DNA of 64,000 nucleotides from a virus (IMGVR_UViG_3300005529_000010:827-64826), one strand, 5' to 3'. Counted from the first letter of the stretch, positions 3,932 to 42,985 are shown. A program made the numbers and translations. The notes: generated from the letters alone by a model not told the origin.

Positions 3932-4372
3932 TTACGGGGTCGTGCCGGGCACGAAGGAGCCGAACTGGCCAGAGACCGGGCCACCAGCCACGCTTTGATC
4001 GGTGACGTCGGTCGTGAAGCTGAACGGGCCGTTGGCGCCGGTGCCGCTCCAGGTCAGCGTCGAGGTGATGTTGGCGGCCGTCATGGTGGCGTTGACCGCC
4101 TGGCCGTCGGCCGACAGCGCGACCTGCACGGTCGGGTCAGAAGACGAGACAGAGCCGCCGGCCGGGCCCGGAACGTTGTTGCCGTTTGCGTCCTGGAAAA
4201 TCAGCGGACAGGTAAACGGCGTATTCACGGTGAGTTGTTGCATAGCCACGATGATCTCTCCTTTGGGGGTGGTGGTGTAAGCGCCGGCAAACCGCCCTCT
4301 CACAGGCGGGCCGAATTCTTCCGCAAGCAGGGCTTGGAGAAGCTCGATGATCAGTTTTTTGAACAGGCTCAT
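3932..4372 (-). CDS. Ig-like beta-sandwich protein
   Basis: ATGA-coupled to the protease; DANGN...SSSDPTV beta-rich pattern. Confidence 0.55.
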   Translation of the reverse strand: MSLFKKLIIELLQALLAEEFGPPVRGRFAGAYTTTPKGEIIVAMQQLTVNTPFTCPLIFQDANGNNVPGPAGGSVSSSDPTVQVALSADGQAVNATMTAANITSTLTWSGTGANGPFSFTTDVTDQSVAGGPVSGQFGSFVPGTTP

Positions 4373-5145
4373 GTCTTGCTCGTGAGCGTGACGGTCCAAA
4401 AATCCGCACAAAGATCGGAGTCGGTGATGTAGGTGTAGGGCATCCAGAAATGGCCGTTCAGCGTCGGGTCGCTCCAGCCGGTGCCCCAGCCCGTGCCCCA
4501 GCTATTGCGGCACAGGACGGCCTGCATTGCGTTGTCGTAGCCCACTGCGCACACGGCATGTCCGCCGATCGGTTCGTCCGCTGGATTCGGCAGCTCGACG
4601 ATCGGGATCGTCGCCGGATCGATGTTCTCGAATTGCTGGAAGACGGAAAATCCGAACACGAACGGCAGACCGCTCGCCAGGCAGGTTTTCAAAACCGAGA
4701 GCGCCGTCCCGTCGATGCTGCGGTAGGCGTAGGCGCGGTGCTCCAGAGCGTTCGTGAAGTCACCGATCGGGGGCTCGTCCGCAAACTTCGTGATGTCGTA
4801 AGGCCAGTCCGCTTCCGTGCAGACGCCGTTCCAACCCAGCGTGTGCAGCCCGTCGCGGATCTCGGCGCCAGCATCGACCCCAACCGTGCCCTCGATGGCG
4901 CGCTCATTGAAATAGATGAACAGCCGAGACGGCGTGATGAACGGCAGACCTTCCTTGCCGCGTACGAAGTCGAAAGCGGCGGCGATGGCGTTGGCGGTGC
5001 AGCTCCCGAGCTGGCCTTGGTCGTAAATCGGCGGCGCCTTGGCGTGCAGATCGACGGCCGGCGGAAGCGCAATTGCTGTCGGCCGATACATGTAATCTCG
5101 ATGATCGAGGCGATCACGGCGCCAGCCGTAGCGCGCGATCTTCAT
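4369..5145 (-). CDS. Papain-like C1A cysteine protease (xylellain-like)
   Basis: YGW..D..D.RD pro-segment, DQGQLGSCTANA (catalytic Cys), GGHAV (His), RNSWG (Asn). Confidence 0.92.
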   Translation of the reverse strand: MKIARYGWRRDRLDHRDYMYRPTAIALPPAVDLHAKAPPIYDQGQLGSCTANAIAAAFDFVRGKEGLPFITPSRLFIYFNERAIEGTVGVDAGAEIRDGLHTLGWNGVCTEADWPYDITKFADEPPIGDFTNALEHRAYAYRSIDGTALSVLKTCLASGLPFVFGFSVFQQFENIDPATIPIVELPNPADEPIGGHAVCAVGYDNAMQAVLCRNSWGTGWGTGWSDPTLNGHFWMPYTYITDSDLCADFWTVTLTSKT

Positions 5146-5432
5146 GGGCGGATGACCTGCATCGGCATGTTCGCCGGCATGACGATTGTCGGAACCGGCG
5201 GCACGACGTTCATGCCCTGCTTCACGTCGCATTGCGGGGAGACTTCGGTCGAGTTCTGGTTCACCCGATTCACGGTGATGTCCTCGAAAGCCGAATTGAT
5301 GTGCACGCACCCGGTCGCCGTCACCGGCAGAGCGGCCGCGATTTTCGAGGCGTCGCTACAGCCGCCGCTGAGCCCGAGGGCACACATCAGGCCAACGAGC
5401 GCGAGCGCGCCCGAGATCGAGCGCCAGTTCAT
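5142..5432 (-). CDS. Lipoprotein, putative spanin component
   Basis: Hydrophobic signal ending LSGGC lipobox-like; follows the holin candidate; Pro-rich tail. Confidence 0.55.
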   Translation of the reverse strand: MNWRSISGALALVGLMCALGLSGGCSDASKIAAALPVTATGCVHINSAFEDITVNRVNQNSTEVSPQCDVKQGMNVVPPVPTIVMPANMPMQVIRP

Positions 5433-5629
5433 TGCCCACCAATCTGGTGCGGCGTGAAAAACACGGCGGCGGAAACGATGAGCGTCTGCAGCGCGCCGAC
5501 CACCTCATTCGGGAGCTGGTGGCCGGAGTCGGCGACGTAGGTATCGAACAGATAGACGAGGATTATGGTCAGCGCGCCGGCCAGCGCGGAGGCGACCGTT
5601 TTCGCTACTCCAGGTGTCGGGTCGGCCAT
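5429..5629 (-). CDS. Putative holin (2 TM)
   Basis: 66 aa, two hydrophobic helices, downstream of endolysin. Confidence 0.6.
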   Translation of the reverse strand: MADPTPGVAKTVASALAGALTIILVYLFDTYVADSGHQLPNEVVGALQTLIVSAAVFFTPHQIGGQ

Positions 5630-5674
5630 TTTTGCGGCCTCAATTTCGAAGGTTGATTTCGCGGCAACAATAAC

Positions 5675-5689
5675 CGGACAGATCGTCCG
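5675..5689. promoter_or_regulatory. Operator copy 2 (CGGACAGATCGTCCG)
   Basis: Extends to AACCGGAC-N5-GTCCGGTT; AT-rich gap between endolysin and holin. Confidence 0.75.
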
Positions 5690-5742
5690 GTTCAATTACT
5701 GTTTTTGCGGGAAATTCGCCAATAAAAGAAATGGATAATATT

Positions 5743-6153
5743 TTATGTGAGGTCATAGAATTGCTGTCGTCCGATCACCGCGAGCGGCTCGCGCGGCGGC
5801 AGCGGCCAATGCGCTGGCCACCCTTCCCAGTTCGCCTTGTAGCTTGTGGCTCCGTGGGTGATGTCGGCGAGGTCGCCCGAGATCGCCTCGGCCGCGATCG
5901 TCAGTGCTTCGGCGAACGTCGGATCGGTCTCGTCGACCTCTTCGAGCTGCTTGCGGTTCACGTCGTGCGGCATCCAGCAATCGAATTGCTCGCGCGCCAG
6001 GCATACCGAGATCACGTCGTGCCCCCACCAGGTCGGATCGGACACGCGGTTCATGACCACGTTGGCGACGGCCTGCATGCCGTCCCAACCGTCGCCGCGC
6101 GCCTCCCCCCAGATTGTGCGCGCAAGCACGTCACGAGGGTCGGCGAGATTCAT
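5743..6153 (-). CDS. Endolysin, SleB/Hydrolase_2 cell wall hydrolase
   Basis: LARTIWGEARG..GMQAVANVVMNRV..QFDCW..DITHGAT. Confidence 0.9.
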   Translation of the reverse strand: MNLADPRDVLARTIWGEARGDGWDGMQAVANVVMNRVSDPTWWGHDVISVCLAREQFDCWMPHDVNRKQLEEVDETDPTFAEALTIAAEAISGDLADITHGATSYKANWEGWPAHWPLPPREPLAVIGRQQFYDLT

Positions 6154-6548
6154 TTGCCGAATAGCTTGGTCAGCACGAAGCCTATGGCGGTGCCGACCAG
6201 GCCGGCGATCCCGGTCCACCAGGCGCGATTGATCGAGCTGTGCAGCGCGCCGCGATCCTGTTCGCGCTCGACGGCGCGCAGCCGCCGCTCCCAATCGAGC
6301 CCATCGACCAACCGGTTTGATGCCTTGTAATCCGAGATGACGCTTTCAAGTGCGCGGAGCCGCTTTTCATATTCGATGTAATCGATCTGCAGCTTGTTCG
6401 CCCGCTCGTGATGTGCCGCGAAGCGGTCGTTCGTCGTCTCATTGAGCGAATCGTATTGTTGCTCCAGTCGTGTTAAGCGGTCGCGTTCTTCGGGCGTCAT
6501 ATCGGCATTCTGGCGGCCGGCAATCTCCACAACCTCCGCGACAGACAT
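6150..6548 (-). CDS. Coiled-coil protein with C-terminal TM (XhlA/holin-associated-like)
   Basis: RLTRLEQ/RLRALE/RLRAVE heptads plus one C-terminal TM; ATGA-coupled to endolysin. Confidence 0.6.
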   Translation of the reverse strand: MSVAEVVEIAGRQNADMTPEERDRLTRLEQQYDSLNETTNDRFAAHHERANKLQIDYIEYEKRLRALESVISDYKASNRLVDGLDWERRLRAVEREQDRGALHSSINRAWWTGIAGLVGTAIGFVLTKLFGK

Positions 6549-6605: not shown

Positions 6606-9020
6606 TCATCGCATCGCCAGCCGCTTTGAGCGGAAGCTCGGGGCGGCAACGAGCGCCGAGTCCCATTCGGAATAGAGAGCTTGCATGAATTTGGAGCTGG
6701 GCTCGTTGTCGTTGGCCGGGTCGTTCATGCCCATGCCGCGCAAAAGCAGCCCGCCGCCGCCAAGGAATGTCCCGGGCGACTCCGCCATGATCGTCGCGAT
6801 GTCGGTCACCAGCGCGCTTTCCTGCGTGCGGCGCAGATACCAGGCATTGCCCGACGGTGTCGCGTTGAAGCAGTTGTTGTTAACGGTGCAGCCGGTGACC
6901 GCGCCAATCACCTGCGTTGCGTTGTTGCCGCCAGCAACGACCATCCAGCCGCCCTTGCCGCTGAGACCCTGATATGCGTACTGGAACCAATAGGTCCAGA
7001 GGTCCCAGTACGTGCGATAGCAAGCCGCCGCCGGGAAGGACGAACAGCTTGAGCCGCCATGTCCGGCCGCCACTGCCTGGGACGAAGATTTCATCCCATC
7101 TTCGCCCGGCACTGTCGCCGCGTTCAGCGTGTTGACGAAGCCGCCGTAAATCCAGCCTTGGGAGGGGAACGGCACGGAGCCACCGGCCACAGGGTTCGTG
7201 TTCTCCACGCCGGAATAGACGCGCGGGCCGGTGTAATTCGAGGCCAGATTGTTCCAGTCGCTCGGGACCTGGCTGCAATTGTATTCGAGCCCAGTGCTCC
7301 AATACGCCGAGGTCGGCATATTGCATTGCATTAGGATGATGCCGGCGACATTCGCGTTGAGCGTCGACAGGTGATTCGTGACCAGCAGTTGGTCGATCGC
7401 CGACTGGCCACCATTGGCAAGCCAGACACCGGAGTTCGCCGCAATGATGTCGGCCCAAAGCCACTCGGCATCGGGATAGTTGCCGCGATCCGTGTTGGTC
7501 GTCACCGCCGAGAGGGTTGCTCCAGAACCGCCGCCGCTTAGAGAGGTAAGAGTGCAAGCGCTCGTGCAATTCGGCGCGGTCGAATAGCTGGATAGCTGCG
7601 TCATTTGCGCGAGCGTCGAGCCCCAATATTCGCGCATGGTGGCGATGCCAGTGTTCGCTCCGGCTGTCGTCGTCAAAACCTTCCACTGCTGCCGCTGCGT
7701 GGTGTCGTTGGTCTCCAGCGTGCCGCAATTCGTTCCGCCACACGACGCGCCTAGCTGAACGATGTCGCCGACGTTGTAGCCAGTCCCAGCGTTGCCGATG
7801 GTCCAGGCGGTGATTCCGACATCGGTCTTGTCCCAGGGCCGGAAATCGGTCTCGACGTTCCCGAACCCGTCATCGGTGTTGCCGTAGGCCGTGTTCGTAC
7901 CCTGGTACGCACCGACCGGCACCCGCCCATCCAAGGCCCAATAATGCAGCAGCGCGCGGAAAGCGCTGGCGCACGCGACATTGCGCGCGTTCGAAGCCAT
8001 CGACAGAAGCTGATTGGCGTTGCGATACACGCCGTCCGCCAAAATTTGGAACGTGATCCAGTCGTCCGCGTCCGAGCAGTCTTTCTCGAACATGATCTTT
8101 TGGTTTTGCGCTGGCGCGCTGAGCGTCGATCCGTTGTTCTGGTAGAACAGCGAGTGATACGTCAGCGCAATATCCAGCGGGAAATTCGACGACGGTCCGA
8201 GGCGCGAGGTGCTACCTTCCGGCCCATTTACGCTGTAGAGCGCGAGGTCCTGCCAAGTGACGGCAGTGCTGTTGTTCGCCTCGGCAATGATGACTGATGT
8301 GCCGCCATTCCAGCTCGCCGCGCCGGGGTTGCTGCCGCCGGTCAGGACTGCCGGAAACGCGGCGCCGTCCTGATAGAACGTGAAGTCGCTGCTGGTGCCG
8401 GTGCCGCCGCCATTGTCGCAGACTCCGATATGGTGCGGCGACGTGCCGACGAGGTTGGGTGAGTTCTGTGCGGCGAACGTGCCGCCAACGCCCGTAACCG
8501 TCGTCGGACTGAAGAATACGCGGACGTTCGTGCCGTCGATGTTTTCGACGCCGAAATACCAGGACGTGAAGTGCGGGGAGCCGGTGGTCAGTTCGTAAAC
8601 CGCAATCGCGGCGTTGCCGGACGAGGGCAGCGCACCGGAGGGGACCTTAACCAGGACCTCCATGCACCAGCCTTTGTTGTAGTCGATGTTCGAGTATGCG
8701 CTCGATCCGGTGTTGGCGTTGGTCGTCCAGGTCGCTGCGTTCGTGACGCTGATTGCAGTCGGCGGCGACCCGCCACCCTCAAGCGCTGTCACGCCACACG
8801 TCGCGCCCGAGCCCGTCAGAGTCGCGGTGTACGCATTCGAGGAGCTGTCGTGCAGCGTCGTGCACGGACTCGCTGCTTCGTCGAATTTCCAGAGGCTGAT
8901 GAGCGAGGACTGGCTGAGGATGTCCTGCTGGTAGTTGCTTGTGGCGCGCACCTCTCCGATCGCGAGAAGCGCGAGCAGCAACCCGAAAATCGCGCGACGC
9001 ATCATCTTTTGGTTGCTCAC
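6606..9020 (-). CDS. Signal-peptide protein: LamG/concanavalin-like domain plus nucleoside-hydrolase-like domain
   Basis: RRAIFGLLLALLAIGEVRA signal; LISLWKFDE..LHDSS LamG start; IMFEKDCSDADD..EYN..YSGVE..YWD. Confidence 0.65.
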   Translation of the reverse strand: MSNQKMMRRAIFGLLLALLAIGEVRATSNYQQDILSQSSLISLWKFDEAASPCTTLHDSSSNAYTATLTGSGATCGVTALEGGGSPPTAISVTNAATWTTNANTGSSAYSNIDYNKGWCMEVLVKVPSGALPSSGNAAIAVYELTTGSPHFTSWYFGVENIDGTNVRVFFSPTTVTGVGGTFAAQNSPNLVGTSPHHIGVCDNGGGTGTSSDFTFYQDGAAFPAVLTGGSNPGAASWNGGTSVIIAEANNSTAVTWQDLALYSVNGPEGSTSRLGPSSNFPLDIALTYHSLFYQNNGSTLSAPAQNQKIMFEKDCSDADDWITFQILADGVYRNANQLLSMASNARNVACASAFRALLHYWALDGRVPVGAYQGTNTAYGNTDDGFGNVETDFRPWDKTDVGITAWTIGNAGTGYNVGDIVQLGASCGGTNCGTLETNDTTQRQQWKVLTTTAGANTGIATMREYWGSTLAQMTQLSSYSTAPNCTSACTLTSLSGGGSGATLSAVTTNTDRGNYPDAEWLWADIIAANSGVWLANGGQSAIDQLLVTNHLSTLNANVAGIILMQCNMPTSAYWSTGLEYNCSQVPSDWNNLASNYTGPRVYSGVENTNPVAGGSVPFPSQGWIYGGFVNTLNAATVPGEDGMKSSSQAVAAGHGGSSCSSFPAAACYRTYWDLWTYWFQYAYQGLSGKGGWMVVAGGNNATQVIGAVTGCTVNNNCFNATPSGNAWYLRRTQESALVTDIATIMAESPGTFLGGGGLLLRGMGMNDPANDNEPSSKFMQALYSEWDSALVAAPSFRSKRLAMR

Positions 9021-9026
9021 GCCGAT

Positions 9027-9485
9027 TTACTTATAGAGGAAATTCACAAGAAACGTGGTGGCCGCAGGGGCGCCCGTATCATTATCGGCGTAGCCCGTCG
9101 TCACGCAGGCCGTGATAGCCGTGGTGAATGTCACCCCCAAACCTGTCATCGAGACATAGCCGGCGCCGAGGCTTGATGCGTTCGCGGGAATCAACCCGCG
9201 CCACTTCGGCGTTCCGCTCCCACAGGTCGTCGACCCCTGTGAGGCATCATAGATCTTGATGTACGCCATCGTGGCGCCGTTGTTGAAGGTCTCAACGCCG
9301 TAAAGCTGACCAGGGCTCGCATCGACAGCGACAGACGTTGTGTTGTTTGCCACCTGCAGGCTTTTGACGCTGAGTCCGGTCGTCGTGCCCGGGATCGGCT
9401 GAACCTGATTGCCGAGATACGAAGCGGTGGCCGGGTGGGCCAGAAAAAGGAGCGCAAGGAGCGCGATCAGAATCTTCGTTTTCAT
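9027..9485 (-). CDS. Signal-peptide beta-rich virion-associated protein
   Basis: MKTKILIALLALLFLAHPATA; ASPGQLYG..N..YIKIYD..GVTFTTAI pattern. Confidence 0.7.
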   Translation of the reverse strand: MKTKILIALLALLFLAHPATASYLGNQVQPIPGTTTGLSVKSLQVANNTTSVAVDASPGQLYGVETFNNGATMAYIKIYDASQGSTTCGSGTPKWRGLIPANASSLGAGYVSMTGLGVTFTTAITACVTTGYADNDTGAPAATTFLVNFLYK

Positions 9486-10729
9486 CAGTTCACACTCCAC
9501 TCAGTGCCGTTGTAGATGACGTCGATCGCGGCGTAGGGGCTGTTGATCACCGCCGTTGCGCCGCCGTCGATCGTGCCGGCGGCCGGCGTCACGGTGATGT
9601 TGTTGGTTGCCGCGTCGCCCTTGCAGTCCTTGATTTTGTAGTAGAGGCCGGTCGCCGGAGAGGACGGTAGGTTGACCGTCGTCGCCGCGCCGACCGTTTT
9701 GTTGATGCAGACGAAAAAATCCGTCGTCGCCGAAACCGTCACGGCGCCCGCCGCCGTCACGACACGCGTCGGCACCGATAGGCTGCCGGTGAACGTCGTC
9801 GTGCCGGAGTGCGAGACGTTGCCGGTGAAGGTCGACGTACCGGAATAGGTGTTGTTGCCGTTCAGCAGCGGGATCGTCGCGCCAGACGTGCCAGTGTTCT
9901 GCGTCGCGGCCGTGCCAAACGACACTCCGTTCGTCTTCGTGACGGTGAGCGCGCCAGTGCCGGTGTTCAGCGTGCCGTCGCCGCCAACCGTGAACCCACC
10001 GAACGCGCCAGCATTGTTGTACTGCACCTGCCCGGACGAACCGCCAGGCGTGCCGCCGCCACCGCCGCACGTCGAACCGTTGTCGATGAAATTGCCGCTC
10101 GCATCGATCTTCACGCAGTCGTTCGTGGTCAGCGATCCGGTCGTGGTGACGAACGTCGTGGTGTTGCCCGATCGCGTGCCAACCGAGGGGGCAACGCCGG
10201 CGCCGCCGCCGATCACCGGAGCGTTGGCTGTGAGCGCGGCCGACGAAGCCAATGTGCTCGCGCCAGAAAAATAGGGGATGCCGCCGCTGGTGCCGCTCGC
10301 CGTGACCGCTAGCGTGCCGGATGTCGTGATCGGGCTGCCGCCAACCGAGAAGATCCCGGGCATCGTCAGCGCGACCGACGTCACCGTGCCGCTGCCACCG
10401 CCGGCGCCGCAATCGCTACCGGTGCCTGAGAGGACACCCGACGTGTTGACGTGCAGACATTGCGTCGAGCCGGTGATGCCCGAGAACGTCGTACCGCCGA
10501 GCGTCACGCCACCGCTAAAGATGTTCGTGCCCGTGAAGGTGCTGTTGCTGCCCTGCAGCAGATTTGCGATGGCCTGCGTCGTGGTTTTCACCGCCGGATT
10601 GGCGGTCTGAAAGATCGGCACGCTTTCGGTGCCGGTGAGCGACGATGCCGATCCGAGCGCGTTGATCGTGGAGTCCGCAAAGGCGGGCCCGGCGATCAAC
10701 ATCAGAAGCGCGACAAGTATCTTTTTCAT
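9485..10729 (-). CDS. Tail-fibre-like protein with signal peptide
   Basis: MKKILVALLMLIAGPAFA followed by fibre-type N-terminal motif INAL..ASSLTGTESVP..Q..KTT; Gly/Thr repeats; C-terminal TVNLP..IKD..G.AATNNIT..IDG module. Confidence 0.75.
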   Translation of the reverse strand: MKKILVALLMLIAGPAFADSTINALGSASSLTGTESVPIFQTANPAVKTTTQAIANLLQGSNSTFTGTNIFSGGVTLGGTTFSGITGSTQCLHVNTSGVLSGTGSDCGAGGGSGTVTSVALTMPGIFSVGGSPITTSGTLAVTASGTSGGIPYFSGASTLASSAALTANAPVIGGGAGVAPSVGTRSGNTTTFVTTTGSLTTNDCVKIDASGNFIDNGSTCGGGGGTPGGSSGQVQYNNAGAFGGFTVGGDGTLNTGTGALTVTKTNGVSFGTAATQNTGTSGATIPLLNGNNTYSGTSTFTGNVSHSGTTTFTGSLSVPTRVVTAAGAVTVSATTDFFVCINKTVGAATTVNLPSSPATGLYYKIKDCKGDAATNNITVTPAAGTIDGGATAVINSPYAAIDVIYNGTEWSVN

Positions 10730-10741
10730 ATATGCGGCCCC

Positions 10742-11029
10742 TTACTGGACAAGCATCTTGACGCCGGTGTTCACCAGCAGCGCGGAGCCGGTATCCACGA
10801 GCAGGACCGACGTGCCGCAGGCGCCGGCCTGCACAAGCATGTTGATCCCGGTGTTCACGAGCAGGTTGACCCCGGTGTTCACCAGCAGGACCGAGGCCGG
10901 AGAGCAGGTGCCGGCTGTGCGCGGGCCGCCGCCAACTTCGGGCAGCAAAAAGACGCTCTGTCCGATCGCGCCCTGAGACACGACCAGGGCGGCGACGATC
11001 AGCAGCAGAACGGCGGCGATACCCTTCAT
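10742..11029 (-). CDS. Small signal-peptide protein with LLVNTG repeats
   Basis: Hydrophobic N-terminus; two copies of SVLLV(N/D)TG..LLVNTG..MLVQ. Confidence 0.7.
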   Translation of the reverse strand: MKGIAAVLLLIVAALVVSQGAIGQSVFLLPEVGGGPRTAGTCSPASVLLVNTGVNLLVNTGINMLVQAGACGTSVLLVDTGSALLVNTGVKMLVQ

Positions 11030-14000
11030 CGCGCCCTCGCCGACCTTTTGTGTTCGAGGAGATCGAGCCGCCGCTTGAGTTCGGCGTTCTCGGCCGAGAG
11101 CTGCTGGACGGATTTGATCAGCGGCCCGATCAGCTCGTCATAGGCCAGGCCATAGCGCTCATGGTCGTTGGCCGGCTTGTGCAGCCCGCCAAAATCTTCG
11201 CCGTCGAGCGCCGCGTCGAGCTGCTGTGCGATCAGCCCATAATGGCGGTGATGATCTTCACCTGTCCGCCACTGGAAGGAGACCGGGTTCAGTTTGTTGA
11301 TAAAGGCGAGCCCGAGGTCGTCCGGCTGAATGTTTGTTTTGTCGCGACGATCCGACGTCTGGATCGTTCCGTTGACCGCCCACACGTCGATCCACCGATC
11401 GCCAGTGTTGCCGAGATGAGTTGCGTTGTCCGTTGTCGGCCCGAGCGTTGGCGTGTTGACGCCGACTGAGAACGAGCCCTTGAGCAACAGCGTCGTGCTG
11501 CCGGAGCTGCTGACCTGCGCGTTCGTGGCGCCGCCGAAATTGAGCGCGCCGCCGCCGGCAATCCACGCGTTGGCCCATTCCAGAGACGACGTGCCCAAGT
11601 CGTAAGTGTTGTCGGCGTTGGGCTCGATCGTCATGCCGGTTGCGAACTTCAAAGCCGCGCCGGTCAGCGTGACGGTCGAACCGTTGCCCGACAAAACCGC
11701 CGTGGCGCCGAGATCGATGTTGCCGTTGTTCGGCAGGGCCAGCCCGGGCGACCCATTTGCGGTGATCGTGCCCGAGAAGGTCGGGTTGCTGACGACGTTC
11801 AGCGTGCCGCTCCCGGTGATCGGGCTGCTCGGCGAGGCCGAGAGATTCGTGCCCGCCGCGATCGACGTCACCGTTCCACTGCCCGCCGAAGTCCACGACG
11901 GATCAGCGCTCGCGCCATTGCTGGTGAGCACTTGCCCGGCGGTCCCAGGGGCGAGCCAGGTCGGCGCCGGGTGGGCATAGAGGATGGCACCTTGCGAGCC
12001 AGGCGCGAGCTGGCTCCAGCCACCGACCGTCCGCTCGGCAATACCGCCGACGGTGCTGCCGAGGTCGTGATCGAGGACGCCGCCGATACCGGCCAAGCTC
12101 TGCATCGTCGGGGCCGCAGAGCCACCGCTGATATTGGCGAGCACCGTCGCGTCAGAGGCCGAGGCCATGGAAACGGTGACCGCGCCAGTGGTCGGGCTCG
12201 CCGACACGGCGCCGGAGCCGGTGACAGACGAGACGGCGCCACCAGATCCGCACGCGCTGCCCGTTCCGGAGAGAACGCCAGAGCTGTTCGCCTGCACGCA
12301 CTGTGTGGAGCCGGTGATGTTGGTCGTGAGGTTGCCCGACAGCGTCTCGGTGACGGTGCGGACGTCCGAATACCGCAGCAGGTTTGTGCCGAGCGAGATC
12401 GTGTTGTCATTCACCGGATTGAGCGGCGCCTCGGCCAGGAGCTGCGTCGCGTTGATGCCGAGCTGGCGCGCGCCCAAATTGGCCCCGTCGCAGATCGTCG
12501 ACCAACAAAGCTGATCGGCTGCCCCGAGGGCGATGTTCGCGTTGAACGTGTTCACGCCGCTCCAGGTATTTGTGCCGTTCAGGAGCGGAATGTTGGCGCC
12601 GGAGGTCCCCGTATTGTCGAAAGCAGCCGTCCCGAAAGCCGTGCCGTTCGACTTCGTGCAGACGATCACGCCGACAGTGATCGTGCAGTCACCGCTCATG
12701 GTGAAGCCGCCGAAAACGCCGCCGTTATTGTACTGAATTTGCCCGCTGCTGCCGCCAGGCGTTGAGCCCGAGCCGCCGCACACCGCGCCCGTCCCGGAGA
12801 TCACGCCGGACGAGTTCACCTGCAGACACTGTGCCGTGCCGGTGATTCCCGTGGTGATGTTGCCGCTGAACGTCGCGGTGTTGACGTGAAAATCGGACCA
12901 ACGAAGCGCGTTCGTCCCGAGCGTGAGCGTGTTGTCATTGACCGGGTTAAGGGCCGATTCGGCAAGAACCTGAGTGCTGCCGATGCCGAGCTGCCGCGCG
13001 CCGAGCGCCGCACCGTCACAGATCGTCAGCCAGCACGCTTGCTGACCGGAGCCGAAAGCGATGCCGGCATTGGCGGTGATCAGGCCCGAGAACGTTGGGT
13101 TGTTGACCACCGCGATCGTGCCGGTCCCGGTGATCGGATTCGGCGTCGCGGTGATGTTCGTGCTCTGGCTGATCGAGGTGATACCGCCACCGCCACCGCC
13201 GCCCTGGTTGCAGCCGATCAGCGTCATCGACTCGCCTTGGATGCCAGAGCAAAAGGCGAGGTTGGCGTTGCTGCCGATGACGATGCCGCCGACGTTATTG
13301 CTGCTGACGTCGACACCCTGGAACGTCAGCCCTGTTCCATTGAGCGCGCCGATCCCGTACGCCTGCGTCGTGGCGCCGGTGCGATTGGCGTAGCTGCCTC
13401 CCGTGATCAGACCGGTCAGAGTCGTGCCGATCGACAGACCATGATAGGTCGCGCCCGGCGTGGATTGGCCGTTCAGCTCGGAAATGTTCGCATTGGCTTC
13501 GAGGAAATTGAGCGCGCCGGACTGGATCGCGATGCCGTCTTTGGAGGCGCCCTCGATCACGTTCTGAACGAGCGAGAGCTTGTCGTTCTGGCCGGTGACG
13601 TTGATGCCGTTGCCAACGTGGGAGGCCGCCGTCGCTTGCGCGCGGCCGGTCGCGATGACCCCCTCAGAGCCCATCTGTGTGCTCGAAATCAGAATCGGCA
13701 GTTGGCCATAGCTGCTGATCTGGATCGAGTCGTTGCCGTCGCCGTTCAGGATGCCGTTGACGAGCTGGAAATTCTCGATCGCCTTGCCGGTCGATCCTGC
13801 GACCTGAATGCCGCCGCCGCTATTGGCGAATGTCGAGATGTTGTACCAGGGCAGCAGGTAGGACGGCCCGGTGAAATTGGTCGTGACCTGAACGCCCCAG
13901 CCATTATTGAACTGCGCGATGGAGTTCTGAAAATTCCATTGCATCGAACCCGAAAAGAACAGGTTCGTCATCAGGAAGCCGGCGTTGAAATTGCTGTCGG

Positions 14001-14988
14001 CTTCGAGACCGGAGGCGAACGACCAGGCGGACGGCCCCAGCAAAAACCCGTTGTACTGGTTGCGCGCCTTGAGGTCATAGAGCGTGAACTGATTGGTCAC
14101 GCCCGCCATCGACAGGCCGATGGCGCCCGAAGTCGCGGGCGAGCCCGAGCGGTCGAACGTGATGCCCTGAATCAAGCCGTTGGTCGCGGCGTTGTTCAGC
14201 AGCACGTTGTTGGTGCCGGTCGCTTTGAGGGTCACAAGCGCGCTGCCGGCGCCGACGATCGTCGTGTTCGTGCAGGAGCCCGTCGTGAGGTTGCCGGCCA
14301 CCTTGTACGTCCCGGGCGGGAGGTAAGCGGCGCACGTCGCAAGCGCGGTGTTGATCGGCGTCGTGCTGTCGGCGGCGCCGGTCGGATCGGCGCCCTCGGC
14401 GATCACGTTGTCCAGCGTCGACATCAGCGTGTTGATTTGCTCGGGCGTCATTGCCGCCGCCGGCGCCGTCACGCCGGAGATGTTGCCCAGCATCGTGTCG
14501 TTGGGGATCGATATGCTGCCGCCGCTGCCGCACGCCGCGCCCGCGTCGCCGATCGAGGAGGCGCCGGTCCAGGTCGCGCAGTGGCCGCTGGTCGGGGTGC
14601 CCGTGACGGTCACCAGCCCCGTGGTCGAGCCGCTGAGCGAAAGGACGGTGTTCCCGTCGACAACGATGTTCAGCGGCTCGGACGGCGCTCCGCCGAGCGC
14701 TTCAAGATCAAGGGTCGCGCCGCCGTTGGTCGTGGCGCCGATGCACAGCTCTTGATACGGGCCGGAGATCGGCCCGGAGTTGACGCAGATCGCCTTGCCG
14801 CCGTTTTTTGTGACCCCGAATTCGGTGGCGGCGCCGGCGGTCGCGGGCCCAGCGTCCATCAGCACGCCATCGGTGGCCCACATCCCGACATGACCGGGCG
14901 TCACATTGCCGGATTGAACGATGTATCCGGCTTCCGCCTCAAGCGAAAAAGAAATCGCAGCGATTAAGGCGACGAGCCACTTTTTCAT
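11026..14988 (-). CDS. Tailspike/fibre with beta-helix and C-terminal peptidase S74 intramolecular chaperone; N-terminal signal peptide
   Basis: MKKWLVALIAAISFSLEAEA; GADPTGAADST..YLPPGTY (pectate_lyase_3-like start); TSDRRDKTNI..LNPVSFQW..GLIAQ..Y.ELIGPLIKSVQQL. Confidence 0.85.
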   Translation of the reverse strand: MKKWLVALIAAISFSLEAEAGYIVQSGNVTPGHVGMWATDGVLMDAGPATAGAATEFGVTKNGGKAICVNSGPISGPYQELCIGATTNGGATLDLEALGGAPSEPLNIVVDGNTVLSLSGSTTGLVTVTGTPTSGHCATWTGASSIGDAGAACGSGGSISIPNDTMLGNISGVTAPAAAMTPEQINTLMSTLDNVIAEGADPTGAADSTTPINTALATCAAYLPPGTYKVAGNLTTGSCTNTTIVGAGSALVTLKATGTNNVLLNNAATNGLIQGITFDRSGSPATSGAIGLSMAGVTNQFTLYDLKARNQYNGFLLGPSAWSFASGLEADSNFNAGFLMTNLFFSGSMQWNFQNSIAQFNNGWGVQVTTNFTGPSYLLPWYNISTFANSGGGIQVAGSTGKAIENFQLVNGILNGDGNDSIQISSYGQLPILISSTQMGSEGVIATGRAQATAASHVGNGINVTGQNDKLSLVQNVIEGASKDGIAIQSGALNFLEANANISELNGQSTPGATYHGLSIGTTLTGLITGGSYANRTGATTQAYGIGALNGTGLTFQGVDVSSNNVGGIVIGSNANLAFCSGIQGESMTLIGCNQGGGGGGGITSISQSTNITATPNPITGTGTIAVVNNPTFSGLITANAGIAFGSGQQACWLTICDGAALGARQLGIGSTQVLAESALNPVNDNTLTLGTNALRWSDFHVNTATFSGNITTGITGTAQCLQVNSSGVISGTGAVCGGSGSTPGGSSGQIQYNNGGVFGGFTMSGDCTITVGVIVCTKSNGTAFGTAAFDNTGTSGANIPLLNGTNTWSGVNTFNANIALGAADQLCWSTICDGANLGARQLGINATQLLAEAPLNPVNDNTISLGTNLLRYSDVRTVTETLSGNLTTNITGSTQCVQANSSGVLSGTGSACGSGGAVSSVTGSGAVSASPTTGAVTVSMASASDATVLANISGGSAAPTMQSLAGIGGVLDHDLGSTVGGIAERTVGGWSQLAPGSQGAILYAHPAPTWLAPGTAGQVLTSNGASADPSWTSAGSGTVTSIAAGTNLSASPSSPITGSGTLNVVSNPTFSGTITANGSPGLALPNNGNIDLGATAVLSGNGSTVTLTGAALKFATGMTIEPNADNTYDLGTSSLEWANAWIAGGGALNFGGATNAQVSSSGSTTLLLKGSFSVGVNTPTLGPTTDNATHLGNTGDRWIDVWAVNGTIQTSDRRDKTNIQPDDLGLAFINKLNPVSFQWRTGEDHHRHYGLIAQQLDAALDGEDFGGLHKPANDHERYGLAYDELIGPLIKSVQQLSAENAELKRRLDLLEHKRSARAR

Positions 14989-15025
14989 GGCCCATCAAAT
15001 AATACCCTTGCTCAAATACTAGCAA

Positions 15026-15040
15026 AGGACATCTTGTCCG
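15026..15040. promoter_or_regulatory. Operator copy 3 (AGGACATCTTGTCCG)
   Basis: One mismatch; AT-rich gap directly upstream of the fibre cluster. Confidence 0.7.
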
Positions 15041-15072: not shown

Positions 15073-15372
15073 TTATCGTCGTCTGAGCACGACGACGTTC
15101 ACCGCGAGCACGAATAGCCCGTACATCCCGAGCGATAGAAGCTGGTTCATGTCGGGGTCGGGCGTCGAAAGCCAGAGCCAAAACATCGAGCCGACCGTCA
15201 GCAGCGTGAACAGGCTTGCGAGGGCGACTAGCGCCCGCTGCGACAGGCTCTTGAGCGCCAGAGCGAAGAGCTGCGCCGCACGATCGTCTTGAGACGACTC
15301 CGACAGAGTCGAACCGTCGGCCATCTCCGGGGTCGCTTCACGCTCTGCGACCAACTCGAAAGGCTTTGCCAT
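15073..15372 (-). CDS. Two-TM membrane protein
   Basis: Two hydrophobic helices, basic C-terminus; GAGG RBS. Confidence 0.7.
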   Translation of the reverse strand: MAKPFELVAEREATPEMADGSTLSESSQDDRAAQLFALALKSLSQRALVALASLFTLLTVGSMFWLWLSTPDPDMNQLLSLGMYGLFVLAVNVVVLRRR

Positions 15373-15646: not shown

Positions 15647-15675
15647 TTGACGACCGGAAGGAAATAAAATAAAAT
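15647..15675 (+). promoter_or_regulatory. Near-consensus sigma70 promoter
   Basis: TTGACG (15647-52), 17 bp, TAAAAT (15670-75). Confidence 0.7.
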
Positions 15676-15921: not shown

Positions 15922-16146
15922 ATGTACTGGAAATGGTCGGTTGGCACCGGATTTTTCGTGTTCCTCGCCACCTACGTCTATGCGATCTCGGCCTACGGGC
16001 TGTTGCTGGGCGGCGGCCTGGGGTGGTTTCCCGCGATCATCATCGCCGTGGTCGCCGGGGCCCTGTGGCCGGTCCTAGCTTTCGCGACCGTCATGGGCGC
16101 GCTGGTTACGGTGATCGTGACAATCCTGGCGATCCAGCCGCACTAA
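15922..16146 (+). CDS. Small multi-TM protein (moron, possible superinfection exclusion)
   Basis: GGAGG RBS; almost wholly hydrophobic; antisense to virion operon. Confidence 0.7.
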   Translation: MYWKWSVGTGFFVFLATYVYAISAYGLLLGGGLGWFPAIIIAVVAGALWPVLAFATVMGALVTVIVTILAIQPH

Positions 16147-19100: not shown

Positions 19101-19226
19101 GAGGGCATTATCCAGCCCGCCGGGCATCATCATCATTTCCGGCACAACGGCCGGGCCGCCCTTCCGATATAGTCTCGATTCAGGAAGGGCCAGGTCGGAC
19201 GTTTGAAGCTCGACCGGATCGGGCAT
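16143..19226 (-). CDS. Large internal virion/ejection protein
   Basis: 1027 aa, Ala-rich helical, Gly-rich hydrophobic segment, duplicated Y.DPEG motif; last of three such genes after tail genes. Confidence 0.7.
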   Translation of the reverse strand: MPDPVELQTSDLALPESRLYRKGGPAVVPEMMMMPGGLDNALPKIADQAGYDALQAGAEYLDPEGQKRRKAYTVTDAKSYEAVPEGSHYTDPEGKVRLKPTYEGVDLTTQTLYDMSLNPKERRKALAAGYGAANVKEDPAGDLYVEKDGKRYKPGHGKLATLGGFVASEAAPTAGAVLGGIGGGVLGTAGGPAGVIAGAAGGAGAGGAGGQAFNDLVLKLAGIYDRSVGQEAGNLAVTAAGSAVGEGAGRVVTAAIPSVKAGIRRVTEQGPSVIADYLGASQTPDAAREALRLAERGVKVPPSAWAPEAPYIHKAVEQFDPAFRKQNVLKTSAEQYYEREGSRILSELGVERPAGETLTGATAPPSSEKAGRALMDRAHETIAQEDAELDKAMSHAREAATMRAFGIGQKEAQADLTAAHDQLVKVADSSRQAAQQITDDGFKAIRADVDGFVQAVKGGGNPGDLFRQAAEKVQTLSRAVKARAGKMYDAADAAAGDHYPNISALTEDAKALRESLPEPFQAKHPDIVKALEALGDPDKTGTQPTFGQLRRLRSMFRQDVDPFDLTPSQRDGVYKLFAGKLDAVLHDAEADPELKAAAKILDHADAYYAKNMPRFRDETIRGMTEALRAGMPADPKGLAKMILQPNQTERIREIRKIVGKNLWNAVTAADTQSMFDSAKTLVPGQVDPATFAREVLDRVQSGIFDAAYDSATARKLQQQAQRVMMIEGKLSIAHTPGDDVASFLKRAEDAEAAVKTLAERDPLGNLTSELSKMDKEFARNRAALQQSRNRDALNFLTQPTALAIRSADKILKSPDLMMAAARRFGETSPEFTLLRQTGALRLLQRPLGKTGNLAAEFGEKISPETQALLFPGVSRDEAVALAKDMNFLLGSAGEVSGDTGGSMAAASRVLHPWGTLGTSGPISFLSHLPGGNAAGRFILAKYYAALTYGVTHPSFIKWVVKGLDGAPAERETVRQEFNRILQESGGAGGGVGQVLTPSYSAGGDQEQGEQKPPAEDWRTRSKQQYGR

Positions 19227-19229
19227 TTT

Positions 19230-25933: not shown

Positions 25934-26896
25934 CTAGAACCGACCGTAGGGGTTCGACCACCTTCCGGGGCGGGCGTAGGCGCCATATCGGGTCATGAAG
26001 CGATCGAACTCGCTCGACATGAAGCGCGCCGAGTTGAAGTTCTGCAGGTCCATGAAGGCGAAATAGGCCGCCATATACGGCACGCCGTCGGTCCACGGCC
26101 GGGGCAGCGCCTCGTAATCCTGGTCGCGGATCAGGTCACTCGGCAGGCACAGACAGTCCCATTCCATCTGATAGGGCTGCGAGGCGATCGGGTAGAAATA
26201 GATCGAGCCGTCGGTGCCTTGCCCATATTGAGCGCAGATCGTCGGGACATACTGATATTGGAACGGATACTGCCGAATATAGGCTTGATAAGTCGAAAAG
26301 CTGTATTGCGGCAGGCTGTAGCGGTAATTCGCGTAGATAATACTTACCGACAGCACTGCGAATATTGCATCGACGCCTGGCCACATCGACGTGTCGACCC
26401 CGGCGAACGGGTACACCTCCTGCCCCTCTTGCTGGAGGTTCATGAAGCTGAGATTGGGCGACAGGATCGCGCCGTTCCCCGTGGGATCGACGATCGACAC
26501 GTTGGGCTGGAAATAGCCGGCGCCGCCGTAGGTCAGGTTGACGCTCGTGATCGATCCGCCGCCGAGGCTGCAAATCGCGGTGGCCTGCTTGCCGTTCGGG
26601 TTCGGCTGTGCGCCGGACGGAAAGTCGGGCGGCGTGATCAGCACCGACGGAGCTGTGTATCCCGAGCCGCCGGCGGTGACGTCGATCGATTTGATCGAGC
26701 CGGTGATCGGCGTCAGGCGGCGCAGGCATTGCGTCCGCATCGCGACCTCACGGCGCGAGCGGTTGACGTACTCGATCAGATCGGCCGGATCGAGCATCTC
26801 CATCTTGCCGTCGTGCAGCAGGCGCTGCGTCTGCTTGAGATATTCGAACAGCGTGCCGCGCGTAGGTGCGGTAGCTGGGCCGGCGTACGAGATCAC
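25934..26896 (-). CDS. Head-tail adaptor paralog 2 with GSGY insertion
   Basis: YLKQTQRLL..DLIEYVN..QYGQG.DG..PWTD.VPY.AAY.A. Confidence 0.7.
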   Translation of the reverse strand: MISYAGPATAPTRGTLFEYLKQTQRLLHDGKMEMLDPADLIEYVNRSRREVAMRTQCLRRLTPITGSIKSIDVTAGGSGYTAPSVLITPPDFPSGAQPNPNGKQATAICSLGGGSITSVNLTYGGAGYFQPNVSIVDPTGNGAILSPNLSFMNLQQEGQEVYPFAGVDTSMWPGVDAIFAVLSVSIIYANYRYSLPQYSFSTYQAYIRQYPFQYQYVPTICAQYGQGTDGSIYFYPIASQPYQMEWDCLCLPSDLIRDQDYEALPRPWTDGVPYMAAYFAFMDLQNFNSARFMSSEFDRFMTRYGAYARPGRWSNPYGRF

Positions 26897-27624
26897 GGTC
26901 CACCTCCGCCACCGCCGTTCGAGAGGCCGAGCTGGTTGTTCCGTACCGGGTTGCCGCTGTTTTCATAGATGAACGGCAGCACGTCCGCGTTCGACATCTT
27001 GCGCGCGCGATTCTGGAATTCCTGATAGCGCTGGAACATCCGGTTCGCATCGTCCTGGCGCGCGGCGCTCTGGGCCGACAGCAGCGCGTAATAGGCCGCG
27101 AAGAACGGCACGCAATCGGTCCACGGGTACGGGATCGCTTCCGGCGTTGCGTCGTCGACCAGCGGGATTGGATAACAGGCCGTGTCCATCAGCAGCGTTG
27201 TGTCGATGGCCGGCACCGGGTCGACATAGATTGTGCCGTCGGCGCCCTGGCCGTATTGCGACCATTCGGTGATCTCACCAGGCGCCGGCGCGGGATTGTT
27301 CAGCCGATAGAAGAAGAACCAGGAGTACGGGCGCGGCCGCAGCCAGATCATCCCGTTGCCGAGCGTCCAGCCCATTTGCCGGATGTTGAAGATCCCCGCC
27401 ACCTTGGGGTTGATCGCCTGCACGGCTGCATTGGGAAACGCGAAGCTGCGCGTTCCCGCCGGCAGCAGGTACGTCGCCTGGACCCGAATACACTCGCCAT
27501 CGCCGGCGGTCTGCCCGCGCGCCGTGTTGATAAAATTCGTGAGGTCCGCCGTCTTGTAGAGCGACTCAGGGGCCGGCGGATTCTGTAGAAGCTCTCGGGT
27601 CGCCGTCAGATAAGCGTTGAGCAT
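26893..27624 (-). CDS. Head-tail adaptor paralog 1
   Basis: YLTATRELL..DLTNFIN..QYGQG.DG..PWTD.VPFFAAYYA. Confidence 0.7.
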   Translation of the reverse strand: MLNAYLTATRELLQNPPAPESLYKTADLTNFINTARGQTAGDGECIRVQATYLLPAGTRSFAFPNAAVQAINPKVAGIFNIRQMGWTLGNGMIWLRPRPYSWFFFYRLNNPAPAPGEITEWSQYGQGADGTIYVDPVPAIDTTLLMDTACYPIPLVDDATPEAIPYPWTDCVPFFAAYYALLSAQSAARQDDANRMFQRYQEFQNRARKMSNADVLPFIYENSGNPVRNNQLGLSNGGGGGGP

Positions 27625-41973: not shown

Positions 41974-42089
41974 GGTGTCTCCCTGCCTAGACCGGCGGGA
42001 AGCTGCGAACTGCGGAACCATTCACAGACTTCCCGCCGGGCCGATCAGGAGCGGCACCAGATTGCATCCCTCGGCGGCGGAAAACGTAC

Positions 42090-42959: not shown

Positions 42960-42985
42960 CGGTCCTGTCTCCTTTCCCTCGGGAT

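Follow-up and report, generated by a model that had tools for sequence, protein, structure and literature searches.

Five adjacent phage genes with predicted Sec signals and paired cysteines: a putative exported receptor-binding module in a late operon

Introduction

The mosaic adhesive trimer (MAT) fibres of the predatory species Bdellovibrio bacteriovorus, which by their architecture appear to be the closest known analogue of the proteins analysed here, carry a signal peptide, a conserved beta-rich N-domain of ~130 aa without a PDB homologue and a long fibre trimer; its exchangeable tips end in a lectin/TNF-like domain or in an S74 chaperone/protease with an SDxxxK motif, and the S74-terminated, signal-bearing trimers fold after export (PMC10769870). 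The same paper mentions S74-chaperoned tailspikes and fibres of phages, including the K1F endosialidase and the L-shaped fibre of T5 (PMC10769870). Two further systems are relevant for the location and timing of the proteins described below. In phage SU10, the adaptor bears the long tail fibres (PMC9509320), and Lys44 of phage fOg44 is a Sec-exported endolysin with a bona fide signal, which leaves the cytoplasm early and stays outside the membrane until the holin is triggered (PMC6116005).

Here, we analysed a window of 64,000 nucleotides from a virus (IMGVR_UViG_3300005529_000010:827-64826), which represents a complete phage genome of ~65 kb (64.8 kb) with direct terminal repeats. A preliminary description had proposed that five consecutive fibre- or spike-like genes of this phage code for exported, oxidatively folded proteins.

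Results

ORF calling and reading of the start regions yielded five neighbouring ORFs, designated A to E, on the minus strand between positions 6606 and 14988, with the N-termini quoted earlier. They are tightly packed, with A and B sharing an ATGA, C and D overlapping by 1 nt and gaps of 6–21 nt at the remaining junctions, and are translationally coupled inside a late structural-lysis operon. Gene A is located between the genes for Cys-free internal/ejection proteins and the lysis genes, matching the position of gp17 in the T7 gene order, after the internal/ejection proteins and before lysis. The lysis cassette (5142..6548, minus strand) follows directly downstream of E; it codes for an XhlA-like protein and a Hydrolase_2 endolysin, together with candidates for a holin (2 TM) and a lipoprotein-like spanin (LSGGC lipobox). 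Immediately upstream of A lies g99 (15073..15372, minus strand), which is conserved in the lineage and codes for a small protein whose C-terminal region holds two hydrophobic segments. The interval separating g99 from A contains a terminator-like hairpin followed by a T-run (15005..15028, minus strand), and the count of such hairpins in the region was not above that in shuffled sequences. The gap upstream of the block also shows a lower GC content. An SU10-type tail adaptor, a candidate docking platform for fibres, is encoded at 26893..27624 (minus strand; Pfam SU10_adaptor, 9.4e-11).

Secreted moron products are common in the tail-fibre regions of phages, e.g., lom of lambda. Together with the hairpin and the lower-GC gap, this would fit a set of lysogenic-conversion genes expressed from a prophage and decorating or arming the lysogen. 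We regard this as highly improbable, because the genome is complete with direct terminal repeats, the roughly 55 proteins scanned (of 72 genes called) contained no integrase family, a profile of the A N-domain gave only two weak matches in 401 alphaproteobacterial genomes, and the genes are coupled within the late operon. The display of the proteins by a lysogen, which had been offered as one option in the preliminary description, is not favoured on these grounds.

All 72 genes, called by GC3, were scored for signal-like N-termini with a custom heuristic (not SignalP) based on a net positive n-region, an uncharged hydrophobic core of 7–16 residues and small residues at positions −3 and −1. Genes A to E obtained the five best scores (31.2–48.2), and all of their N-termini show a basic residue, a hydrophobic core of 12–15 residues and a small-x-small site with no lipobox Cys at +1, as expected by this heuristic for substrates of Sec and signal peptidase I. 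The runner-up (30.5) was an internal GTG inside a gene for a Rossmann-type epimerase, followed by a 74-aa membrane ORF on the plus strand (28.1). If five of 72 genes were placed at random, the chance of finding them adjacent would be 4.9e-6. No signal-like N-termini were present in the capsid, adaptor, ejection and terminase genes. Thus, the proposed signal features were recovered on all five adjacent ORFs and, among the 72 genes called, are unique to them, and the claim that ejection, tail and capsid proteins lack them held for the genes named.

Gene D contains only one start codon within the first 40 codons, and the next starts in A (codons 29 and 36) would both cut the conserved QSGNVTPGH motif, so neither protein can lose its signal through the use of another start. 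In-frame ATG/TTG codons at positions 10–11 of C and a GTG at codon 19 of E, together with the modelling of A residues 2–14 as a helix by AF2, would be compatible with uncleaved helices that serve cytoplasmic fibres as structural elements or membrane tethers, or with signals used only in part, internal starts giving rise to cytoplasmic isoforms. We consider either version quite improbable: the cores of 12–15 residues are too short for a membrane anchor, A and D offer no usable internal start, and the relatives described below argue in the same direction.

The N-domain of A retrieved 901 cluster representatives at E<=1e-3, and the best 149 of them were rated by the heuristic as 128 strong, 3 weak and 18 negative for a signal. 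Among the relatives with an N-terminal extension, a small-x-small site occurs at most 10 residues before the conserved Q in 139 of 139 cases, K or R is present within the first 8 residues in 134 of 139, and the median signal length is 20. Gene C has 1917 homologues at E<=1e-3; the 119 listed homologues comprise 97 strong, 7 weak and 15 negative cases, several of the latter visibly truncated. The homologue survey suggested in the preliminary description therefore came out positive (128/149 for A, 97/119 for C), and the predicted signals appear to be conserved across hundreds of uncultured relatives. Ten signal-less relatives of A begin 6–8 residues ahead of the conserved Q of QSGxVTPGH; their existence indicates that the extension is dispensable for the N-domain, which, like the canonical −3/−1 sites in 139/139 extended forms, is difficult to explain with an uncleaved structural helix. 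All ten belong to one 13-tip clade, alongside three signal-bearing proteins (clade support 0.20), and this clade is sister to the query (support 0.75).

The products of A to E contain 18, 2, 6, 2 and 16 Cys, respectively, all within the mature parts and mostly as close pairs, the 18 Cys of A forming nine of them. Cys is 2.6-fold commoner in the five proteins than in those of other structural genes (44/2780 vs. 40/6418, p=2e-5). All Cys pairs quoted before were found again, including CWLTIC at A652/657; C-x15-C units occur at A137, A721, A897, C91 and C205. The pair Cys68/Cys82 of A is present in 139/139 extended relatives vs. 0/10 signal-less ones. Even Cys counts were observed in the mature parts of 119 of 128 signal-bearing relatives of the A N-domain and 92 of 97 of C, none of them being Cys-free, whereas only two of the ten signal-less relatives have an even count. 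This pairing, and its loss along with the signal, is hard to reconcile with cytoplasmic fibres carrying uncleaved helices. The co-variation of signal and Cys pair represents few independent events.

The fibre/spike protein A (11026..14988, minus strand; 1320 aa) consists of a signal-like N-terminus, a beta-rich N-domain, a Cys-paired fibre and a C-terminal S74 chaperone. Its predicted Sec-type signal (residues 1–20; 14929..14988, minus strand; score 31.2) would be cleaved after A-E-A. The following conserved N-domain (residues 21–130; 14599..14928, minus strand) starts with QSGNVTPGH...W...GV..D.G and was modelled by AF2 with a pLDDT >90 for residues 21–110, placing Cys68 and Cys82 in neighbouring strands (67–70 and 78–86). 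We found no fold match for this domain in PDB or BFVD. The pectate-lyase-like beta-helix named in the preliminary description received no support from Pfam: no family matched residues 160–640 at E<=5, and a match to End_tail_spike was sub-threshold (20 bits, cut-off 25). The S74 intramolecular chaperone/protease domain expected at the C-terminus was confirmed at residues 1212–1262 (11203..11355, minus strand) by Pfam Peptidase_S74 (PF13884; 3.2e-14, 53.4 bits at a cut-off of 22, and 59.3 bits in a second search). The SDRRDK motif at residue 1212 fits the catalytic SDxxxK motif of this domain, and PHROG tail spike/fibre families match residues 1135–1313.

Protein B (10742..11029, minus strand; 95 aa) shows a signal-like N-terminus, five LLVNTG-type repeats and two Cys, and had no relatives in the related loci compared and no Pfam or PHROG family. 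Fibre C (9485..10729, minus strand; 414 aa) carries a signal at residues 1–18, two C-x15-C hairpin units and a small C-terminal domain; it contains the GGSSGQVQYNNAG motif and shares internal repeats with A. Protein D (9027..9485, minus strand; 152 aa from MKTKIL) has a signal at residues 1–21 followed by a beta-sandwich with two Cys. Its nearest ESM Atlas clusters are 94–100% viral, and its structure matches are beta-sandwiches, one of them with a weak C1q lead (TM 0.45).

Protein E (6606..9005, minus strand; 799 aa from MMRRAIF) has a signal at residues 1–21, a LamG-like N-terminal part and 16 Cys. The earlier assignment of LamG found support in ESM Atlas structures only: matches to residues ~21–290 name Laminin_G_3 with a TM of up to 0.75 for an Atlas model with a pLDDT of only 0.47, but Pfam gave no LamG match even at E<=5. 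The single homologue found, P0271 (59% identity), has a signal-like N-terminus with a diverged core and the same mature start, SNYQ. E contains RR in the n-region, and RR is also present in P0271; in Tat signals, a twin-arginine motif precedes a longer, less hydrophobic core. The signal of E, however, spans only 21 residues, and its core is strongly hydrophobic.

Seven related loci share g485, g1027, g99 and g746, one of them being the signal-less locus L064. This locus comes from a sister phage within the lineage (L064/G408), whose adaptor is 51% identical. At the same place, the sister phage codes for two fibres (1465 and 485 aa) which lack signals and have the same N-domain, but without its Cys pair; no signal-like gene was found within its 35-kb fragment. 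In another lineage (L066), a fibre of 631 aa without a signal is nevertheless rich in Cys (18 Cys). In five relatives, a signal-less, Cys-free protein of ~163 aa, which shares a 25-residue N-terminal motif with the fibre, is encoded just upstream of the signal-bearing fibre.

This small protein could be the true virion-resident fibre of these relatives, which raises the question of whether A to E are parts of the virion at all. They may be exported and disulfide-bonded, yet act on or from the infected cell's envelope, or free after lysis, either as receptor-destroying or -masking enzymes or lectins which block superinfection and the sticking of progeny to debris, or as adhesins displayed on the cell like the MAT fibres; infectivity would then depend on signal-less tail proteins. 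In keeping with this reading, two genes adjoining the adaptor gene, g320 and g746, code for Ig-like domains and have matches to some of the 'tail fiber' PHROGs. The surface-displayed MAT family has the same layout of signal, beta-rich N-domain, trimeric fibre and tip, the A N-domain lacks a fold match in PDB or BFVD just as the MAT N-domain lacks a PDB homologue, and E resembles secreted bacterial LamG proteins more than any fibre. Still, we regard an exclusive action outside the virion as somewhat unlikely. The ~163-aa protein is absent from the window, and the signal-less orthologues of G408 are the only fibre-like genes in its 35-kb fragment. In the relatives, g746 shows end-to-end conservation with an optional Ig insert, which seems more like a core tail protein than a receptor binder. 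The N-domain of the fibres is conserved and their C-terminal parts are mosaic, as is usual for receptor-binding proteins of virions, and homologues of one adaptor family occur in 10/10 related records bearing the N-domain, a circumstantial sign that the two may dock.

Discussion

Our preferred, still tentative explanation is that A to E represent the receptor-binding module (fibre/spike and accessory proteins) of a T7/SU10-like short-tailed phage, which is exported by Sec and joins the virions at lysis. Judged from the sequences, export and disulfide-dependent folding of the five proteins are well supported because of the conserved signals, the co-variation of signals and Cys, the even Cys counts and the signal-less sister fibres. 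This strongly supports the exported and oxidatively folded set suggested in the preliminary description, as does the start of the signal-less relatives at the predicted mature N-terminus. The fibres probably fold outside the cytoplasm, unlike in the textbook route of tailed phages.

The actual translocation and processing of the proteins, the formation of disulfides and especially the entry into virions at lysis are inferred, and may proceed as follows. Pre-proteins made late in infection would cross the inner membrane unfolded and be cut by signal peptidase I a few residues ahead of the conserved QSGxVTPGH N-terminus. In the periplasm, they would fold and trimerise, oxidation would turn the paired cysteines into disulfides, and A would lose its S74 chaperone by self-cleavage. 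DNA-filled, fibre-less particles would meanwhile build up in the cytoplasm. Once the holin makes the inner membrane permeable, shortly before the wall is broken by endolysin and spanin, both pools would mix at high local concentration, allowing the fibre N-domain to dock on the adaptor/nozzle. Attachment to virions is favoured by synteny and by the orthologous, signal-less fibre locus of the sister phage. As in podovirus tail-fibre genes, the block lies in a late structural operon near the internal-protein and lysis genes, with a conserved N-terminus and a mosaic distal part; the lack of an export signal, which is also characteristic of such genes, is contradicted by the signals of A to E. The feasibility of such a route is illustrated by the MAT fibres, as S74-terminated trimers folding after export, and by the Sec-exported endolysins, as late phage proteins placed outside the membrane in advance. 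We found no report of signal-bearing, exported fibres in tailed phages in our literature search, and no precedent for the pick-up of fibres during the seconds of lysis.

The locus thus combines traits of several known systems. It shares the SU10-type adaptor with SU10, and the location of the fibre gene after the internal/ejection and before the lysis genes, with a conserved N-terminus and a variable distal part, with SU10 and T7 gp17; the A N-domain resembled none of the solved fibre N-termini compared, either in sequence or in fold. With S74-chaperoned tailspikes and fibres of phages, A has in common the C-terminal Peptidase_S74 domain with SDxxxK and the PHROG tail spike/fibre matches. The known members of this group, to our knowledge, lack signal peptides and trimerise in the cytoplasm, whereas A combines a canonical signal with nine closely spaced Cys pairs. 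The resemblance to the MAT fibres, namely a signal, a beta-rich domain (21–130) and an S74 end, is one of architecture. MAT fibres are encoded on the chromosome of a predatory bacterium and displayed on its own surface, whereas A to E occupy the tail-fibre position of a complete phage genome, in a late operon between ejection and lysis genes. Finally, Sec-exported and SAR endolysins are likewise late phage proteins pre-positioned outside the membrane, but they are lysis enzymes rather than virion or receptor-binding proteins.

It is conceivable, although we would not yet call it likely, that a widespread lineage of short-tailed phages with genomes of 54–67 kb finishes its virions in two compartments. 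Heads and tails would be assembled in the cytoplasm, whereas the whole receptor-binding apparatus would be exported by Sec, cross-linked by disulfides in the periplasm and attached to the particles only when the holin opens the inner membrane. If this is true, the Sec machinery, signal peptidase and Dsb enzymes of the host would be obligatory factors for the infectivity of a tailed phage, and the MAT adhesins of Bdellovibrio would be domesticated descendants of exported phage fibres, or donors to them.

Results

The window covers positions 827–64826 of a source record of 64,826 bp with direct terminal repeats and a completeness rating of 100%, and its late operon is made up of minus-strand genes between about 35.8 and about 4.4 kb. 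The gene for the large terminase (TerL) comes first, as indicated by a weak Terminase_6C match and by tblastn hits naming terminases (best 38% identity, to phages from spring metagenomes), followed by those for a 765-aa protein, assigned by its portal-like size, a major head protein (PHROG 9953), an SU10-type adaptor (Pfam, 9.4e-11), two proteins of 320 and 746 aa with Ig-like domains (g320 and g746), four to five internal or ejection-type proteins and two small proteins of 71 and 99 aa (g71 and g99). They lead into five adjacent fibre- or spike-type genes, A to E (1320, 95, 414, 152 and 799 aa; 6606–14988, minus strand), which are followed by a lysis cassette with a Hydrolase_2 endolysin, a holin candidate with two TM segments, an XhlA-like protein and a lipoprotein-like spanin candidate. 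This order, in which the fibre genes lie between those for internal proteins and those for lysis, is of the T7/SU10 kind. The block lies inside this late operon, and it appears highly improbable that it represents lysogenic-conversion genes.

Several other genes were recorded in the window. The gene of g320 (25934–26896, minus strand), next after that of the adaptor, codes for a partly adaptor-like protein, and in all ten relatives the ORF that follows the adaptor gene likewise matches residues ~45–215 of the adaptor, which suggests that g320 may be an adaptor paralogue carrying an Ig-like insert. A very hydrophobic 74-aa ORF (15922–16146, plus strand) in the gap between the genes of g71 and of g1027, an ejection-type protein, breaks the late operon just ahead of the fibre block and has a sigma-70-like site upstream (15647–15675). 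The g99 protein (15073–15372, minus strand) has two hydrophobic C-terminal segments; it is encoded directly upstream of a fibre gene in seven related loci and is kept there whether the fibre has a signal or not. A Peptidase_C1 (papain-family) cysteine protease gene (4369–5184, minus strand; Pfam 1.2e-6), an unusual phage cargo, adjoins the lysis cassette downstream, and further genes code for an epimerase-like protein (nucleotide-sugar, PHROG 540; 41134–42021, minus strand), an Rrf2-family regulator domain (42537–43391, minus strand) and a Gp3-like "recombination directionality factor-like" protein (59119–60516, plus strand).

The preliminary description had assigned Sec-type signal peptides to all five fibre genes, and re-reading the sequence returned the ORFs and their N-termini exactly as quoted there. 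We screened 72 genes, called by third-position GC, with a heuristic of our own (not SignalP), trying every start within 40 codons and demanding a net positive charge, then an uncharged hydrophobic stretch of 7–16 residues (mean Kyte–Doolittle value at least 1.6) and small residues at −3/−1 within 8 residues after this core. Genes A to E scored 31.2, 48.2, 38.3, 40.0 and 35.8, respectively, which are the top five values of the 72 genes; the next-best score of 30.5 came from an internal GTG of the epimerase gene, where the apparent core is a GxGxxG Rossmann motif, and the following one of 28.1 from the 74-aa membrane ORF on the plus strand. The chance of finding five such positives adjacent to each other among 72 genes is 4.9e-6. 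Because only one start codon occurs among the first 40 codons of D and the alternative starts of A would remove a motif kept in hundreds of homologues, mis-called starts cannot explain the signals of A or D. The signal pattern in the five genes is real and far beyond chance. The predicted hydrophobic cores are 12–15 residues long, which fits cleaved signals and not membrane anchors, and we regard it as very improbable that these N-termini remain uncleaved and serve as anchors. In B (10742–11029, minus strand), for which no relatives were detected, the signal is followed by five repeats of the type LLVNTG-x-N-(L/M)LV and two cysteines; the protein could help with assembly in the periplasm or belong to the fibre itself.

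An exhaustive HMMER search with residues 1–180 of A against 1.84 billion cluster representatives gave 901 matches at E ≤ 1e-3, including 414 at E ≤ 1e-10, and the alignments almost always begin within the first 20 residues of query and match. Among the 149 best of these 901 matches (leaving out the near-identical homologue P0122), the heuristic rated the N-terminal signal as strong in 128, weak in 3 and absent in 18, eight of the latter showing long N-terminal extensions or truncations ahead of an evident signal. In all 139 extended forms, a small-x-small site precedes the invariant Q by no more than 10 residues, this Q belonging to the motif QSGxVTPGH, with which the N-domain of A (residues 21–130) begins; K or R occurs within the first 8 residues in 134 of them, and the predicted signals have a median length of 20. 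Homologues of fibre C numbered 1917 at E ≤ 1e-3, and among the 119 listed the signal was strong in 97, weak in 7 and negative in 15, several of these beginning with non-Met residues and representing fragments. The one homologue found for E (59% identity) has a signal of other sequence and similar character, and shares the mature start SNYQ. No relatives of B or D occurred in the loci fetched for comparison, and the ESM Atlas clusters nearest to D are 94–100% viral. The predicted export signal on the fibre block is conserved in a large lineage of uncultured phages.

Scanning IMG/VR with the conserved motif yielded 18 loci, mostly on contigs of 62–67 kb, and 7 of the 65 compared loci share homologues of the window proteins g485, g1027, g201, g746 and g99. 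The adaptor family of the window was present in all ten related records probed (54–67 kb, except for the 35-kb fragment G408), with 45–51% identity in five and profile E-values of 1e-101 to 1e-112 in the five others. Most of these ten contain several adjacent signal-bearing, Cys-rich genes after Cys-free ejection genes, a layout taken from per-locus maps. Clusters of signal-bearing fibre-like genes sharing the C-type repeats also occur in unrelated viral contigs of 36–57% GC. The sister phage G408 (locus L064), with an adaptor 51% and a g746 homologue 41% identical to those of the window, carries at the same position two signal-less fibres of 1465 and 485 aa, in which the N-domain is kept and the Cys pair is absent. 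The heuristic found zero signal-like genes across this 35-kb fragment; the whole-genome scan used a GC3 filter that loses genes of lower-GC relatives and was relied on for G408 and the window only. One lineage thus has, at the same locus, a putatively exported, Cys-paired version of the fibres and a putatively cytoplasmic version without the pair. In five relatives, a signal-less, Cys-free protein of ~163 aa is encoded directly upstream of a signal-bearing fibre (L052:9501–10004, L055:9027–9515, L058:8866–9354, L061:9526–10017, L065:10004–10492); it shares only its first ~25 residues with the fibres (LQSGxVTPGH...W...GV..D.G) and is absent from the window. Three loci also encode signal-bearing proteins of ~240–270 aa with the mature start ADMPVKAP (L006:14277–15086, L061:13064–13879, L065:13997–14722), which may resemble Omp25/Omp31-type porins of Hyphomicrobiales and could be a host clue. 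A scan of bacterial genome contigs with C gave six loci in assorted MAGs and no host signal.

Even numbers of paired cysteines are a classic signature of exported disulfide-bonded proteins. The mature parts of A to E contain 18, 2, 6, 2 and 16 cysteines, respectively; every count is even, and most of the residues lie in close pairs, among them five hairpin units of the C-x15-C type and two units of the C-x4-C type. Cysteine is 2.6-fold enriched over the other structural genes (44/2780 vs. 40/6418, p = 2e-5). Even counts recur in 119 of 128 mature signal-bearing relatives of the A family and 92 of 97 of the C family, none of them Cys-free (binomial 1e-25 and 9e-22, although these are not independent trials, as pairs are inherited among relatives), versus only two of ten signal-less proteins. 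These ten, from the 149 A-domain relatives, start only 6–8 residues ahead of the conserved Q, the predicted mature start of the others. They all lack the Cys68/Cys82 pair of the N-domain, which is present in 139 of 139 extended forms (Fisher 9e-16, a value that ignores kinship and overstates the evidence). In an AF2 model of the A N-domain (mean pLDDT 80.8; >90 for residues 21–110), the two cysteines lie in neighbouring strands (67–70 and 78–86). A tree calculated with both Cys columns masked placed the ten signal-less proteins with three signal-bearing ones in one 13-tip clade (support 0.20), sister to the query (support 0.75); because they share one clade, the signal/Cys pattern may go back to a single evolutionary switch or to just a few. 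A counter-example from another lineage, L066, has a signal-less 631-aa fibre with 18 cysteines. The joint loss of predicted signal and Cys pair agrees in direction with a role of the signal in bringing the domain into an oxidising compartment. From these sequence patterns, we regard it as well supported and highly probable that the receptor-binding block as a whole is exported and folded oxidatively.

The three large internal or ejection-type proteins of the window (1027, 485 and 457 aa, 1969 aa in total; 16143–22053, minus strand) contain zero cysteines. Homologous gene runs in L052, L056, L063, L064 and L065 are also Cys-free, with six consecutive such proteins in L052, and there may be selection against disulfide trapping while these proteins cross the periplasm at ejection.

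Discussion

The fate of the proteins after export can be stated less firmly. We tentatively consider that the exported fibres would be incorporated into virions once the membrane has been opened by the holin. The T7-like position of the block and the combination of conserved N-termini with mosaic C-termini in A-type fibres agree with such a role, and the signal-less orthologues are the sole fibre-like genes in the fragment of G408. The window likewise contains no further fibre-like gene besides the block. Across all relatives, g746 is conserved over its full length, apart from an Ig insert that is optional, as would suit a core tail protein and not a receptor binder. From its position and conservation it may be nozzle-like (an AF2 model from a 7-row alignment reached a pLDDT of 39). 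However, the ~163-aa protein of the five relatives might be a virion-resident element, which the window lacks, E resembles secreted bacterial LamG proteins, and no case in which fibres attach after having been exported is known to us. The proteins might instead act on the envelope or as free secreted proteins, which we consider rather unlikely.

A literature search over listings and abstracts (subscription journals and supplements being outside its scope) did not find signal-peptide-bearing tail fibres in tailed phages. A parallel is provided by Sec-exported endolysins such as Lys44, late phage proteins that are kept waiting outside the membrane until the holin fires (PMC6116005). According to PMC10769870, the mosaic adhesive trimer (MAT) fibres of Bdellovibrio consist of a signal peptide, a conserved beta-rich N-domain of ~130 aa without PDB homologues and a trimeric fibre with an S74 (SDxxxK) or lectin/TNF-like tip, and are displayed on the predator's surface. 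Protein A is laid out in the same way, and its C-terminal S74 chaperone domain carries SDRRDK at residue 1212. Like that of MAT, the N-domain of A had no match in the PDB (Foldseek with the model, E ≤ 0.001), which does not show a new fold, and it also had none in BFVD; with VIA-align, the highest Z against 48,161 chains was 3.2. Sequence searches of the PDB with A, C, E, g746, g457 and g320 yielded no meaningful match, tblastn with the A N-domain and C against 50,697 GenBank phage records gave no match, and related-locus searches with E, g1027, the homologue P0130, A residues 1–200 and the adaptor found no loci. The proteins A to E are a variant of tail fibres or spikes and of MAT-like exported fibres.

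The assembly of tailed phages is taught as purely cytoplasmic. A lineage-wide export signal on the receptor-binding module breaks this picture and would be a notable departure if the route into the virion is confirmed; the signals accompany disulfide-type Cys patterns, and both are lost together in signal-less sister proteins. Either way, recombinant fibres or depolymerases of this type probably need periplasmic or oxidising expression, and signal-bearing "tail fibre" genes should not be dropped as non-structural by annotation pipelines. If the fibres are virion parts, infectivity would depend on host Sec, signal peptidase and Dsb, which would represent new host factors and new resistance routes, and the holin would time fibre attachment. 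If they are not, these phages secrete fibre-like adhesins and enzymes as a complete set in the course of infection, a set that would be a counterpart, and possibly the ancestor, of the MAT fibres of predatory bacteria.
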